Below, in pieces: positions 4,760-11,571 of a DNA stretch of 11,654 bases. How positions within the stretch are numbered: position 1 is the first letter of the stretch; each line of letters starts with the position of its first letter. This DNA comes from a virus: the UHGV virus genome UHGV-1617644. One strand, 5' to 3'. The position numbers were made by a program, and so were the translations under genes. The notes below the pieces were generated by a model. That model made no database searches. It saw only the letters and a program-made list of their open reading frames with translations, and had not been told where the DNA came from.

Positions 4760-4789
4760 AGTTCACTCACTACTTATTTTTTGTCAGAT

Positions 4790-4817
4790 TTTATGTTCGC
4801 GTATACAGTTTAGTCAA
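4790..4817 (-). promoter_or_regulatory. Candidate sigma70-type promoter for the two-gene cassette (-35 TTGACT, 16-nt spacer, -10 CATAAA)
   Basis: Read on the minus strand in the 173-bp AT-rich intergenic region upstream of the 256-aa ORF: TTGACT (4817-4812) and CATAAA (4795-4790). The -10 matches consensus at only 4/6; judged by eye. Confidence 0.3.
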
Positions 4818-4932
4818 TCCACATCTGATCTACTTAGTAGTTTCGCACAAAATCCCCCTTAGAAAATGAATCTCTAGATTTTACTACGAGCCCATTTCCC
4901 TGAAAAATCGAGGATTTTCTACTCTAGTGCCA

Positions 4933-6766: not shown

Positions 6767-7353
6767 TAGCCGCCCCCCAGTAATGACGCCACGTTACCCG
6801 TGATGCTTTTCAGCAGTGAAGTATCTGGAGGTTTTGTGGTTTTGTTGCCGCTGTTCTGTACCGCCGACGTGCTGGCCCCTTCCTTCATGTTGGTTTTATC
6901 CGCGACGGTAATCTGCTGTGTCCGGGAGATAATGACCTCCCTCAGGGTGAGGACGGCGGACAGGACGTTTTCGGTTGTCTTGTCCGTCGTCACTTCCAGC
7001 GCCCGGATCAACATGTTGCTGTACAGCCGTTTACCGGTTACCACATCGAAGGGGATACGGCTTTCCTGCAGATCCAGTAGCTCCTGATACGTCTGCTGAG
7101 GACTCAGGCCGAGCTGGCTGGTAGCCGTCAGATTACTGGCAAAATCCAGCAATGCGCCGCCACCGGCGAAACCAACCTCCATCACCACTTCTGACGGTTT
7201 TTTATAGGCATGATCAGCGACAGCGGCCCCGACCTCTACCGGATGCTCTGTTATTTCAAGCATATCTGTATGCTTCTCTGAAATAACAACACTGGGAACA
7301 ATCATTCCTATTTTTCTGCTCTGCTGATGAAAAAGTGTAGAGAGAATATCCAC
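6766..7353 (-). CDS. Post-tape-measure tail/baseplate assembly protein (195 aa), function unassigned
   Basis: GTG start overlapping the TMP stop (TAGTG) with GAGG upstream. Sits where Mu/P2-type clusters carry a tail-completion or DNA-circulation-like protein; no motif recognised. Confidence 0.55.
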   Translation of the reverse strand: MDILSTLFHQQSRKIGMIVPSVVISEKHTDMLEITEHPVEVGAAVADHAYKKPSEVVMEVGFAGGGALLDFASNLTATSQLGLSPQQTYQELLDLQESRIPFDVVTGKRLYSNMLIRALEVTTDKTTENVLSAVLTLREVIISRTQQITVADKTNMKEGASTSAVQNSGNKTTKPPDTSLLKSITGNVASLLGGG

Positions 7354-9362
7354 TAACCCACCCTCACCTGATTACTTCGCATGACCTGAGCATTTGCAGA
7401 CTGTTGCCGACGTGCAACCTCATTACCGACAGCGTGCGGATCTCCGCCACCGTAAATGTGGTAAGTATTTTGCTGGTTAACCTCTGTCATTTTGCCACTA
7501 ATTCCCGCCACGGCAGCCTTATTAATCAGCTCTCGAGAATAGATATTTCTTCCATTTTCATGCTGGATAATGCTGCTCATCAATGCTGACATGGTTTGCG
7601 GATCGCTCATATTCAGGGCAGCCCGGGGATCCACTCCCAGTCGTTGCGATACAGCCCTGATATACGCAGTTGTGTTGTTATTATCAGACGCAGGTGCCCA
7701 GGTAGAGATAATTTTCTCCACACTGTTTATTCCCCGTCCGGCGTACAGCATTAACTGACGAGCAAGAGCCCGTAATCCATCAAAAGCAGTTTCAAATCTG
7801 GCAAATCGCCCGCCCGGGCGTTCAAGAGAAGCCCCTGCCTGACCAGCAAAATTAAGGTTTCCCGGATTGTTATTCCGTTCTCCTCGTTTCGTAGCCTGTG
7901 CATATTGTTCCGGCTCATCATCACCAAACCAGCCGCGTACCGTCCGGCCCACACTGCGGGGATCGAATCCCCAGTGCTCTTTAATCCAGTCGGCAGTACT
8001 GTTAGCGCTGTCTGTAACCATCGGCATCGCTGACGGATTTTCGCTGCCCTGATTAAGTATCTGTTTGCCGATGCTGACGGCATCAGCCCAGCGGCCATCT
8101 TTGATAGCGTTGAGCAGGTCGGCGATCATGTTCAGCATTTTGCTGAATTCGCCCATCTGGTCGATGAAGTTGCTGAAATCCCACTTCAGGGACCATGATT
8201 TGGGGTCAATATTGAGCAGTTTCGCCAGCGCTTTCACCAGTTCATTAACAGACCCTTTCAGGTCACGAACCATCTTCAGCGCGGCATCGACCTCCGGCTT
8301 CCACTTGCCCCAGTCAATCAGGCTGTCGCCGCCTTCCTTCCAGGTCTGATAGTCCTCCCACAGAAGGGCAATCCCCGCCGCCAGCGCGGTAATGAGGCCA
8401 ATCGGCGACATCCAGAACGTACTGTTCAGAATGCGCAGCGCAATCGTCAGCGCGCCAAACAGCGAGATGAGCTCCCGCGTTTGCTTATCCAGCGATTGCC
8501 ACCAGGTGATAAGGCTGGATGTTCCCTCAATTAGCCTGAAGAACAGCCGCCCGATGATGTCTCCGAGCGCCAGAATGCCTTTTATGGCTTTCGTCAGGGT
8601 CTGCTCGATGCGCGGGAAGTTATCGAGGATGTGGCGGCGCAGTGTGTCCAGCGAACCCGCCAGACCACCAGCAAGATTAGAGCCGATTTTGTCACGGGCC
8701 ATGCCTGCCATCGCGCCGAACTCGCGCAGGGAGGTCATAAATTTGTTGGAGCTTCTGGCCGCCTCGTCAGCATTGAAGCCGATAGCTTTCGCCATTGCGC
8801 TGTACTGCCCGGAGAAGCCACCCACACCCCGGCGCATCGCCATAAGGGTATTTTCGTCAATGCCCAGCATCTGCGCATACTGGTTAGCCCGGTAATACGG
8901 CATGCCGCTGAGCTTCTGGCCTACACCTGTAAAAATAGAGGCCATGTCACGCATGTTACCGCTGGCATCCCGTGTCTGTACCCCTAGGCGATTCAGAAAT
9001 CCCTCTGCACCGGGATTGTTACGAATAAACCGGGAGAGGCTTTCCAGAGAAGAGCGCGCAGCGTCTGCACTGCCGCCAACCTGCGAAACCGCATAGCCAA
9101 TAGACTGAATTCCATGGACCGTCGCGCCGGTGCGCTGTGACGCCCAGTAAAGATTATCCAGACCGGAGGCGATCTTAGCCGTGAAGGCCACCACGGACAG
9201 TGCAGTTCCTTCGACGGCCAGCCCCATTTTGATGACATTTGCAGTTGTACCGGCGAGGACAGAACCGAACTTTTTCGCTCCTGCATCATCCACACTGAAG
9301 CCAAGCGAGACGAGGAAATCTTTAATAGTTTCAGCGTTCATTATCCTATCTCCATTTCTCAA
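7353..9362 (-). CDS. Tail tape measure protein (669 aa by track; likely true start at the ATG at 9341)
   Basis: Longest ORF, directly after the chaperone/frameshift pair; Ala/Gly/Ser-rich with hydrophobic central segments (e.g. LISLFGALTIALRIL..., IGLITALAAGIALLW). GGAG lies 8 nt before the second ATG (MNAETIK...), so the first 7 codons of the track ORF are probably not translated. Confidence 0.85.
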   Translation of the reverse strand: MRNGDRIMNAETIKDFLVSLGFSVDDAGAKKFGSVLAGTTANVIKMGLAVEGTALSVVAFTAKIASGLDNLYWASQRTGATVHGIQSIGYAVSQVGGSADAARSSLESLSRFIRNNPGAEGFLNRLGVQTRDASGNMRDMASIFTGVGQKLSGMPYYRANQYAQMLGIDENTLMAMRRGVGGFSGQYSAMAKAIGFNADEAARSSNKFMTSLREFGAMAGMARDKIGSNLAGGLAGSLDTLRRHILDNFPRIEQTLTKAIKGILALGDIIGRLFFRLIEGTSSLITWWQSLDKQTRELISLFGALTIALRILNSTFWMSPIGLITALAAGIALLWEDYQTWKEGGDSLIDWGKWKPEVDAALKMVRDLKGSVNELVKALAKLLNIDPKSWSLKWDFSNFIDQMGEFSKMLNMIADLLNAIKDGRWADAVSIGKQILNQGSENPSAMPMVTDSANSTADWIKEHWGFDPRSVGRTVRGWFGDDEPEQYAQATKRGERNNNPGNLNFAGQAGASLERPGGRFARFETAFDGLRALARQLMLYAGRGINSVEKIISTWAPASDNNNTTAYIRAVSQRLGVDPRAALNMSDPQTMSALMSSIIQHENGRNIYSRELINKAAVAGISGKMTEVNQQNTYHIYGGGDPHAVGNEVARRQQSANAQVMRSNQVRVG

Positions 9363-9971
9363 TGCGCCGCTGGTTATCCGCTTTTACCGCCAGATGGTCA
9401 TTCAAGAGAGCAATGTCGTACAAATCGACAGAGCCATCTTTAAGTGCTGTATAAGGAATTAACCCGGCGTCAACCGGATTGAGAAGGTAGGACAGCCCGT
9501 CCGGCAGGCTGTTAAACGTCAGCCCTGTTGCAGACTCTGCGTCGTGCTGGTAAGGGGTGTAGGCAAAAAATTTCCCAGCGAATCGGCGACCACCCGCGCC
9601 ACCAGCTGCAGCATGACCAGCAGGTCAATATCATCAAACATCAGTTCGCCCTTGGTAAATACCGGCACCCATCCGTCCATATGACGCCGCGACACCACCG
9701 CAAGACAGGGATGAATAATCGCTTCGGTGTCATCTTCGGTCAGGGAAGACAGTTCCTCAGCGATACGCGGGAGCATGGTTTCAAACACCGGTTTTAACTG
9801 CTCGAATTTCACGGTTTCGATTTTGCCGTCAGCAGGCAAACGGGAGCGAATGCTCCCGAAATCTGACATCATTCCCGCCAGTACCGGCAGAAGTTTGCGG
9901 GTCACTTTCAGCTGGTCAAAAACGCTGAGTTTTGCCACGCGATATTTCACGCCTTTAATTTCGAATTCCAT
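9346..9971 (-). CDS. Predicted -1 frameshift fusion product of the chaperone (GT / E+E' analogue, about 208 aa)
   Basis: Hand translation: the -1 frame is open for 75 codons from the slippery site to TAG at 9348-9346 (KFFAYTPYQHDAESATGLTFNSLPDGLSYLLNPVDAGLIPYTALKDGSVDLYDIALLNDHLAVKADNQRRIEKWR); the +1 frame hits TAA almost immediately. This ORF has no ATG, so it is absent from the supplied ORF track. Confidence 0.55.
9519..9971 (-). CDS. Tail assembly chaperone, short in-frame product (lambda gpG / P2 gpE analogue, 150 aa)
   Basis: Lies between tube and tape measure; GGGGAG 9 nt upstream of ATG; a slippery heptamer sits near its 3' end and an open -1 frame runs into the TMP start (see frameshift features). 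Confidence 0.7.
   Translation of the reverse strand: MEFEIKGVKYRVAKLSVFDQLKVTRKLLPVLAGMMSDFGSIRSRLPADGKIETVKFEQLKPVFETMLPRIAEELSSLTEDDTEAIIHPCLAVVSRRHMDGWVPVFTKGELMFDDIDLLVMLQLVARVVADSLGNFLPTPLTSTTQSLQQG
9564..9576 (-). promoter_or_regulatory. Programmed -1 ribosomal frameshift slippery site (mRNA GGGAAAUUUUUUG)
   Basis: In the chaperone frame the codons are CUG GGA AAU UUU UUG, so G_GGA_AAU fits the X_XXY_YYZ pattern, with overlapping A_AAU_UUU and U_UUU_UUG heptamers. As I recall it, lambda G/GT uses the near-identical G_GGA_AAG. Confidence 0.55.
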
Positions 9972-9974
9972 GTA

Positions 9975-10415
9975 TTAAAACTCCCCGAGAACCTGGTCAA
10001 TCTTGCCGCAGTCAAACACCCACGGCATCGTATTACCGGTTTTAGCGTTGGCGTTATCCGGTTGTTTCTGGAACGCAACACTGCGTGCCGTGATGATGTC
10101 GCCGCTGACCTTGTTGCGGATCACGATAACGTTATTCCCCCATGTGGCAGAAGACTGGCTCTGTGCGTTATACGCCAGCGACAATTTTTTATTTGTCGGT
10201 GATGTCTTCAGAAGGTTAACGGTAATCGTCCCGCTTTTATCTGCATGGAGGCTGTGCATCACTTCGCCATCAGCACCGATGGTCATGGTGTTTTTAGGAC
10301 CGCCCATCGCAACCACAATCCCCTCCTCAGAACTTGCCGAACCGTACCCGAGGTCAATCGAACCGGTCGGCCCGGTCAGCGTCGCAGTGACATCCATAAA
10401 AGAATAGGTAGACAT
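9975..10415 (-). CDS. Tail tube protein (146 aa)
   Basis: Small ORF directly after the sheath gene; SD GGGGAAG between sheath stop and ATG. Position and size typical of myovirus tube proteins. Confidence 0.6.
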   Translation of the reverse strand: MSTYSFMDVTATLTGPTGSIDLGYGSASSEEGIVVAMGGPKNTMTIGADGEVMHSLHADKSGTITVNLLKTSPTNKKLSLAYNAQSQSSATWGNNVIVIRNKVSGDIITARSVAFQKQPDNANAKTGNTMPWVFDCGKIDQVLGEF

Positions 10416-10425
10416 TCACTTCCCC

Positions 10426-11571
10426 TTAGCGAACAACGTTAATCTGTACGTCAGCGTAATGAACCGCGCCTGCAAGTTTTATTGCAGCCTGAATCACCGG
10501 AGCCTTACGGGCTTCACGTTCTGATTGTGCCTGTTCATCCAGCGGCTGGGCGTATACGTAATAACCTTTGGGCAGCGTGTCACCTGATGACAACTGCCCA
10601 AGGTTGCCACCGTTCCATACGCCCGGAGCAATCAGTCCATTCTGAACAGCCTGATCCAGTGATTTTTCTACATTTGATAACAGTCGGGTAATACCGGCTT
10701 CAGTCTGGGGAACTTTCGTGGTGCTGGTATAAAGCAGGTTATAGAGGTTGGTCTGCACATAATTCTGTAACCAGTCCAGGCCGTGGCGTTCATCAAAGAA
10801 ATCGCCGTTAGCCATCACTCCCTGCTGGAGGATAGCTGTATCATTCTGGTAGTACACGAACACATTGCAGTTTTTTGCATCAAGTGCCGATGCCTGGCTG
10901 ACTGTCAGTGTTTCATACCCGACACCCGGCTCCTGCTTAAACTTGAGCGTAATCGCGGTATTACTGCCATTGAAATTAACCGTGAATGCCCGGCCAAATG
11001 CAGATAACGCAGCGTATTTATTACCCGATGAATACTGAATAAAACTGCGTGAATATCCGGCGGTTTTCAGTTTTGATGCCAAATCATCGCTGGATGCAGT
11101 CTGCAGGCATTTCTCATCGCTTGTCGTAATCGCCAGAATACGGCTTACAGAAGAGGATTCGATCGCCGCAGCCACTTTCAGCCAGTCTGCATCCGGAATA
11201 TCTTCATCGTCTGCAATCCCCAGCCCATACCATGAAGTATAATCGAGCATGGCATTCACAGCCTGCTCCAGCGTCTCAGGCGTGGCCTGTTCGCTGTCTC
11301 CCTTCGTTTTCACCCAACGACCAACAAAAACCTCCTGAGGTTTCGGTGATTGTGAGAAAAACACCTGCGCAGCCTTATATTCTGGTGATTCCACGCCAAA
11401 ATCTTTTCCAATATCTTCCGCGGCAGAATAACGACGAATGCGCTCACTTACCGGAATGATTGTGGACGGGCCGAGAATGAGTAATGCACCAAAATTTCGC
11501 CCTGATGCTGCACGCGGCGACATGATCACATCAACATTAACAACGTTTGATACAGGCAAGCCCTGTGCCAT
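10426..11571 (-). CDS. Tail sheath protein (381 aa)
   Basis: First gene of the sheath-tube-chaperone-TMP series; GGAG 8 nt upstream of the ATG; size fits a contractile sheath subunit. Assigned by synteny, not by a motif. Confidence 0.6.

Follow-up and report, generated by a model that had tools for sequence, protein, structure and literature searches.

Two overlapping reading frames between the tail tube and tape measure genes

We analysed an 11,654-nucleotide (nt) stretch of the virus genome UHGV-1617644 (referred to here, at its full length, as the window) and concentrated on the region between its tail tube and tape measure genes, where a sequence-only reading of the DNA had placed a programmed −1 frameshift extending the tail assembly chaperone to the start of the tape measure gene. 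All genes of the window lie on the minus strand, within a contractile-tail module in which sheath, tube, chaperone and tape measure follow one another and the baseplate genes come next. Two overlapping open reading frames (ORFs) occupy the interval between tube and tape measure, which is the layout of the G/GT type. The first of them, the zero-frame chaperone gene (9519–9971, minus strand), translates from 9971 to 9519 into 150 amino acids (aa) with the C-terminal end ...ADSLGNFLPTPLTSTTQSLQQG and closes with a TGA stop at 9519–9521 on the same strand. The protein matched the Pfam family Phage_TAC_15 (PF21822) well above the gathering threshold (E=3.5e-31, 108.8 bits, cut-off 22) and, among the PHROGs, phrog_1688 'tail assembly chaperone', and it would represent the 'G'-like short product of the locus.

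Close to the end of this gene, at 9564–9576 on the minus strand, lies the run G_GGA_AAU_UUU_UUG, read in the zero frame (9578–9564) as CUG GGA AAU UUU UUG. It holds three overlapping heptamers, all in the X_XXY_YYZ phase: G_GGA_AAU at 9576–9570 (heptamer A), A_AAU_UUU at 9573–9567 (heptamer B) and U_UUU_UUG at 9570–9564 (heptamer C). The run is placed 18–16 codons ahead of the chaperone stop, and its GGA codon is codon 18 counted from the TGA, so that the GGGAAAU heptamer and the U-run behind it were found just where the sequence-only reading had put them. A shift on heptamer A or B is predicted to give the junction ...LGNFFAYT..., and a shift on heptamer C the junction ...LGNFLAYT.... The frequency of the heptamers in the window is by itself not beyond chance (TTTTTTG, 6 occurrences with 2.8 expected; GGGAAAT, 3 with 2.3 expected), while their position, phase and conservation are; the argument must therefore rest on context and conservation.

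Read from the GGG at 9576, the −1 frame gives GKFFAYTPYQHDAESATGLTFNSLPDGLSYLLNPVDAGLIPYTALKDGSVDLYDIALLNDHLAVKADNQRRIEKWR (GKFFAYTPYQ...RRIEKWR*), a stop-free stretch of 76 sense codons. The openness claimed for this frame was thus borne out, re-translation showing no stop between 9573 and 9349, and the count of 75 codons given with it had to be corrected by one. Counted from the first UUU, the extension spans 74 codons (9349–9570, minus strand), which would form the 'T'-like part of a long product with a predicted length of 208 aa. It ends at a TAG at 9346–9348 (minus strand), inside the initiation region of the tape measure gene as had been noted, since the tape measure ATG (9341–9339) begins 4 nt past this TAG and the GGAG ribosome-binding site of that gene sits within the end of the −1 ORF. 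The C-terminal part of the extension is a conserved module (9349–9456, minus strand) that matched Pfam DUF6889 (PF21829) over residues 41–76 of the −1 translation (E=3.7e-19, 68.6 bits, cut-off 23.9) and phrog_4364, 'unknown function' (E=4.5e-21). NCBIfam held no model for the chaperone or the extension, and a search by sequence for solved structures of either returned none.

Conservation of the −1 frame and of the slippery run

A chaperone profile search yielded 80 loci from different bacterial species, sharing 38–85% aa identity, of which 78 were intact; counts given below over 79 sequences comprise these 78 loci plus the window. In nearly all relatives the extension measures 79–82 codons and ends at, or overlaps, the tape measure ATG. 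Past the zero-frame stop, positional entropy at the first, second and third codon positions of the −1 frame was 0.72, 0.59 and 1.35, respectively, the third position being the most variable, so that a −1 frame kept open and evolving as coding sequence is strongly supported. These results bear on one alternative, namely that the open −1 frame and the heptamers coincide by accident and that no long product is made or needed. The near-chance frequency of each heptamer in the window speaks for such a coincidence, as does the lack of a stimulatory structure (see below); it does not account for a −1 ORF of 76–82 codons that stays open with a coding-type substitution pattern, nor for a family signature at the Pfam level across phages of Enterobacterales, Acinetobacter, Burkholderia, Ralstonia and Bordetella. 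We regard this explanation as effectively refuted by the comparative data and give it next to no credence.

Alternatively, the −1 ORF could be an independent small gene of approximately 54 aa, translated from its own start and never fused to the chaperone. This is how RefSeq and the NCBI annotation pipeline PGAP present it, as a stand-alone 54-aa 'DUF6889 family protein' (L005 9606–9770, corresponding to the window region 9495–9346) in hundreds of Escherichia coli genomes; a short ORF is also called there in some phage records, and Pfam and PHROGs keep a separate family for it. However, the start assigned by PGAP is a CTG, and in the −1 frame of the window no ATG, GTG or TTG was found upstream of the conserved LPDG... 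module. Past the slip site and ahead of the conserved domain, only 19 of the 79 loci had such a codon, and only one of the 79 had a Shine–Dalgarno (SD)-like motif. Moreover, amino-acid conservation in the −1 frame (FFARTPRQRD...) sets in precisely with the U-run, still within the chaperone ORF, and tblastn searches of distant phages with the extension found homology from residue 1 (FF). An independent gene would also leave unexplained the frozen synonymous sites of the slippery run described below, and we consider it very improbable. The −1 ORF appears from its sequence to have no initiation signals of its own and to be reachable only through a change of frame, as in G/GT-type loci.

The TAG that closes the −1 frame of the window is a private variant, a G-to-T change (GGAGAGAGG to GGAGATAGG) in the ribosome-binding region of the tape measure gene. 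At the codon corresponding to 9346–9348, GAG or GCG was present in every relative with a readable extension end (72 of 80 loci from the IMG/VR collection, the rest being cut off or different there), and likewise in an E. coli prophage that is 99.9% identical to the window. Where the frame of the relatives was followed, it continued for five more codons (…WREDNER*), with an overlap of 11 nt with the tape measure ATG.

The slippery run was conserved at the nucleotide level. The pattern xxU_UUU_UUN was in phase in 77 of the 78 intact loci (UUG in 71, UUU in 4, UUA in 1 and UUC in 1), heptamer B was present in 69 of the 78 and heptamer A in 66. The codon preceding UUU ended in U in all 79 sequences (AAT in 73, AGT in 3, GGT in 2 and GAT in 1) and never in C, the Asn codon of the run being AAT in 73 of 73 cases; the Phe codon was UUU in 78 of 79 and the Leu codon UUG in 73 of 74, while the adjacent codons for Asp (GAT 42, GAC 34) and Ser (six different ones) were free to vary. 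Synonymous sites frozen in this way are the classical signature of nucleotide-level selection at a recoding site, which is how we read the pattern in these sequences. The run itself, GGGAAATTTTTTG, was confirmed in 76 of 80 closely related IMG/VR viral contigs; a 77th kept heptamers B and C and had lost heptamer A through a synonymous CTA codon, and in the remaining three contigs the search pattern for the run gave no match.

The sequence-only reading had named GGGAAAU as the slip site. This heptamer is indeed present, but it is the least conserved of the three (66 of 78 loci, against 77 of 78 for U_UUU_UUN), and the comparison favours the U-run. A shift made specifically on the lambda-like G_GGA_AAU, with the U-run as mere context, would fit with the retention of this heptamer in most loci and of the rare Gly codon GGA in 72 of 79 sequences, and also with locus L026 and Bordetella phage IFTN9, both of which retain only heptamer A. 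On the other hand, 12 relatives that kept the extension intact no longer have it, owing in some cases to synonymous changes (CTC/CTT for Leu, GGT/GGC for Gly) and in others to replacement of Asn with Ser, Gly or Asp, and it is absent from the Burkholderia, Ralstonia and Providencia phages considered below. Four relatives (L038, L070, L073 and L075) carry a −1-frame stop immediately 5′ of the U-run, between it and heptamer A; in L038, L070 and L075 the extension is nevertheless intact (77–81 aa), which leaves the U-run as the only place for the shift in these three. In systematic measurements in E. coli, AAU and UUG were 'heterogeneous', weaker A-site (ZZN) codons, while H_HH.U_UU.Y motifs, including A_AAU_UUU, fell into the efficient class (Sharma et al. 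2014, PMC4066793), so that heptamer A ends in a codon that is a poor −1 A-site codon in this bacterium. A shift confined to G_GGA_AAU thus appears unlikely, although less so than the two alternatives set out above.

The corresponding codons of distant phages also form an in-phase heptamer, often of another type. Burkholderia phages Magia and BgManors32 carry C_CCU_UUU, with a run of four Ts (T4), and Acinetobacter phage AbTJ carries G_GGA_AAU plus A_AAU_UUU (AAAUUUU). Bordetella phage IFTN9 carries G_GGA_AAU followed by ACU, with no T-run, Ralstonia phage PY059 carries G_GGU_UUU plus U_UUU_UUC, and Providencia phage PSTCR3 carries U_UUU_UUU. By these comparisons, approximately 80 species-level relatives, as well as distant phages, retain the putative slip site along with both reading frames, as the G/GT type would require. 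The position of the slip would accordingly be conserved while its motif turns over, a pattern that argues for tandem slippage by the ribosome over slippage by RNA polymerase, because some of the distant runs are only 3–4 nt long.

In the case of polymerase slippage, one U added on the A3U6 run would generate a minority of in-frame mRNA. The T6 run found in 77 of 78 relatives, T7 in a few, is compatible with this, and one extra T in the DNA yields exactly the fusion ORF. However, documented bacterial cases use runs of approximately nine A or T residues (reviewed in PMC5009743), while the run here has six Ts; the distant homologues with T4 (Magia, BgManors32 and AbTJ) or no T-run at all (IFTN9) always hold an in-phase X_XXY_YYZ heptamer. 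Retention of the phase without a long T-run counts against polymerase slippage, since phase matters to ribosomes only, and the record of phage P2 annotates the shift on an identical sequence as translational. We therefore give transcriptional slippage little weight, as little as an independent gene.

A natural in-frame fusion was rare, P0001 being the only protein among the top 120 homologues to have both Pfam domains. Its DNA (L173 694–712, Logan contig SRR23924998_45326) has seven Ts in place of six and encodes a 213-aa in-frame fusion of chaperone and DUF6889, with the junction LGNFFAYT, exactly as predicted for a shift on heptamer A or B. A further homologue, P0016, known at the protein level, reads into the +1 frame past the run, which would fit with one T fewer. 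Both are either homopolymer sequencing errors or genuine indel mutants at the slip site.

Known systems, stimulatory elements and proposed mechanism

The nearest functional analogue of this locus is E/E+E' of phage P2, which works alike and belongs to a different sequence family. The pair gpE and gpE+E' of this contractile-tail phage was reportedly described by Christie et al. (2002, J Bacteriol 184:6522). In both phages a small chaperone gene directly precedes the tape measure gene (T in P2) of a myophage, U_UUU_UUG stands in the same phase (GGT TTT TTG in P2, AAT TTT TTG in the window), the zero-frame stop follows a few codons past the slip, the end of the extension overlaps the start codon of T, and a conserved module of approximately 37–40 aa forms the C-terminal end of the extension. 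The GenBank record of P2 marks the −1 site within GGT TTT TTG, at position 19685, and has the end of E' overlapping the start of gene T. The two differ in the length of the chaperone (91 aa for gpE, 150 aa here) and in the slip site, a single heptamer in P2 and three overlapping ones here. Neither the fusion nor the extension was homologous to E' by our searches, which gave no match of the fusion to PF06528 (Phage_P2_GpE) at E≤1 and an hhalign probability of 0.4% for the profile of the extension against E'; membership in the P2 gpE/E+E' sequence family, which we had considered, was ruled out by these results.

The gpG/gpGT pair of phage lambda represents the conserved translational frameshift of tail assembly genes in double-stranded DNA phages (Levin et al. 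1993; Xu, Hendrix & Duda 2004, 2013, 2014; summarised in PMC5009743). As in lambda, two overlapping ORFs lie between the major tail or tube gene and the tape measure gene, a heptamer of the G_GGA_AAN type is found near the end of the first ORF, and the long product is expected to be scarce. In contrast to lambda, where the heptamer is G_GGA_AAG with an efficient Lys codon, its counterpart here has U as the last letter and is surpassed in conservation by other heptamers; the tail is contractile, with sheath and tube genes upstream; and the T-like domain comes from another sequence family (DUF6889). The claim that the window holds the conserved G/GT-type arrangement was supported by synteny, conservation of the site, the lack of start signals and the retention of both frames.

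Two homologues had already been predicted to undergo the same frameshift. Klebsiella phage Mulock (MN098327, CPT_Mulock_014/015) has the same families, Phage_TAC_15 plus DUF6889, with the same slip position and an identical GGGAAATTTTTTG, and Burkholderia phage Magia (MT701587, CPT_Magia_015/016) has the same gene family and slip position with C_CCU_UUU only. Both records contain a joined coding sequence, 'tape measure chaperone frameshift product', as a prediction, and the Magia paper likewise identifies the programmed frameshift as a prediction (PMC7883833). Neither the Mulock paper nor the SEN34 paper takes up the frameshift, and our literature search found no paper naming DUF6889.

The anatomy of the locus, its conservation and the coding status of both frames were observed directly. 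From the comparative evidence we consider it very probable that the locus is a G/GT-type programmed −1 ribosomal frameshift of the tail assembly chaperone. Several points weigh against this interpretation. Its support is comparative, the slip and the fusion protein being predictions for this gene family, and the relatives are phylogenetically related, so that the counts are not counts of independent events. Two of the three heptamers present weak E. coli A-site codons (AAU and UUG), and the extension of the window is 5 residues shorter than in every relative. In addition, the predicted fold downstream of the site in the window was no better than that of shuffled sequences (z −0.34, −0.57 and −0.86), RNAalifold on 59 diverse relatives predicted virtually no consensus structure (−0.5 kcal/mol) and no helix close to the site, the fold z-scores of 82 individual sequences averaged −0.29, and a search of Rfam gave no matches. 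No conserved hairpin or pseudoknot is located 5–9 nt downstream of the heptamer, and the search for downstream RNA structure that the sequence-only reading had suggested therefore came out negative by each of these approaches. Downstream RNA structure appears not to be involved. The E. coli dnaX and IS3/IS911 sites also use an X_XXY_YYZ heptamer for tandem slippage decoded by E. coli ribosomes, but they rely on an upstream SD sequence, a downstream hairpin or pseudoknot, or both; in contrast, the present locus has no conserved downstream structure and only a speculative SD-like element upstream.

This element, GGGUGGUC, lies at 9588–9595 on the minus strand, 13–19 nt 5′ of the heptamers. The codons CGG GTG, of which CGG forms part of GGGUGGUC, are kept in 50 of 79 loci despite CGG being a rare Arg codon. 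Judging from its sequence, GGGUGGUC could pair with the 3′ end of 16S rRNA and may act as an upstream stimulator of the frameshift, a lead that we regard as speculative. An 8-base-pair hairpin, CAGCCUGCCGGACGGGCUG (9510–9492), was rejected as a stimulator: it occurs in the SEN34-like subgroup only, is over 50 nt away from the site and is there because of the codons for NSLPDGLS.

By the proposed G/GT-type mechanism, a small fraction of ribosomes would slip back one nucleotide on G_GGA_AAU_UUU_UUG and read approximately 74 further codons in the −1 frame. Their product would be a 208-aa fusion of chaperone residues 1–134 with the DUF6889 C-terminal domain, next to an abundant short form of 150 aa. 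If the analogy with lambda gpG/gpGT and P2 gpE/gpE+E' holds, the tape measure protein would be bound by the short as well as the long form, and the tube protein would be brought in through the additional domain of the long form, leading to polymerisation of the tail around the tape measure; the virion would contain neither form. We infer that the slip takes place, that it is inefficient and that its products act in tail assembly. To judge from conservation, the U-run heptamers (B and C), which form the conserved core, are most likely the main or ancestral slip site, and G_GGA_AAU is probably an auxiliary or redundant one.

A more elaborate version of this mechanism is possible, and we offer it tentatively, as doubtful on present evidence. 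The site would be a compound 13-nt run of overlapping in-phase heptamers, three in number, that turn over in evolution (G_GGA_AAU, A_AAU_UUU, U_UUU_UUN, C_CCU_UUU and G_GGU_UUU), with the shift made on constant codons and perhaps aided by the upstream SD-like GGGUGGUC instead of a downstream structure. If this were true, the efficiency of the site would be the sum of several weak sites, and DUF6889 would constitute a 'T-domain' family of its own in contractile tails, with no sequence relationship to lambda T or P2 E'.

Annotation of the locus and other features of the window

Only the Mulock and Magia records join both pieces of the predicted product, unlike the E. coli prophage lineage of the window, which carries no joined frameshift annotation. 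This lineage was matched in at least 368 of 5,426 complete E. coli genomes in RefSeq, and the predicted 208–213 aa tail assembly protein is absent from the records of these genomes. In RefSeq/PGAP and most phage records the stretch between chaperone and tape measure is either an unannotated gap, of 177 nt in several phages, or a separate 'DUF6889 family protein' called from a CTG, which bears out the expectation that ORF callers would miss the fusion. The feature lists given under the matches suggest that the same ORF is labelled 'NTP pyrophosphohydrolase' in records of some phages of E. coli and Klebsiella. Both this label and the CTG-start gene look like artefacts of an unrecognised frameshift. 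A more fitting description of DUF6889 and PHROG 4364 than 'unknown function' would be the C-terminal domain that a frameshift adds to Phage_TAC_15 chaperones, and the family offers a clean comparative test case for frameshift predictors, with a conserved site, heptamer turnover and no RNA stimulator. The value of the finding lies in the correction of annotation, the biology fitting the lambda G/GT and P2 E/E+E' paradigm with nothing unexpected.

Upstream of the chaperone gene and adjoining it lies the tail tube gene (9975–10415, minus strand), identified by its match to Pfam KPP10_Orf10 (E=8.8e-61) and by its Magia homologue, annotated as a putative tail tube protein, and further upstream the tail sheath gene (10426–11571, minus strand), which matched phrog_205 'tail sheath' (E=1.8e-135) and Pfam DUF3383. 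The tape measure gene (7353–9341, minus strand), starting at the ATG at 9341–9339, encodes 662 aa and matched phrog_2276 'tail length tape measure protein' (E=3.9e-282). It includes a C-terminal lytic transglycosylase region, in agreement with RefSeq for the 99.9%-identical prophage: in its C-terminal third the protein matched the lytic transglycosylase/endolysin families phrog_873 and phrog_7182, and PGAP labels the entire protein 'lytic transglycosylase', which we read as a tape measure with a built-in cell-wall hydrolase.

The identity of 99.9% with the E. coli prophage was determined across a 901-nt query (9200–10100). The kin of the window include Salmonella phage SEN34 (Brunovirus), Yersinia phage YP3 and the vB_EcoM-606R2 group, and related lineages were found across Enterobacterales. 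Finally, within the otherwise tightly packed string of baseplate genes, an AT-rich non-coding gap of 173 nt (4760–4932) carries a promoter-like TTGACT-18-TAAAAT on the coding (minus) strand, a 10/12 match, suggesting that the gap may hold an internal promoter.

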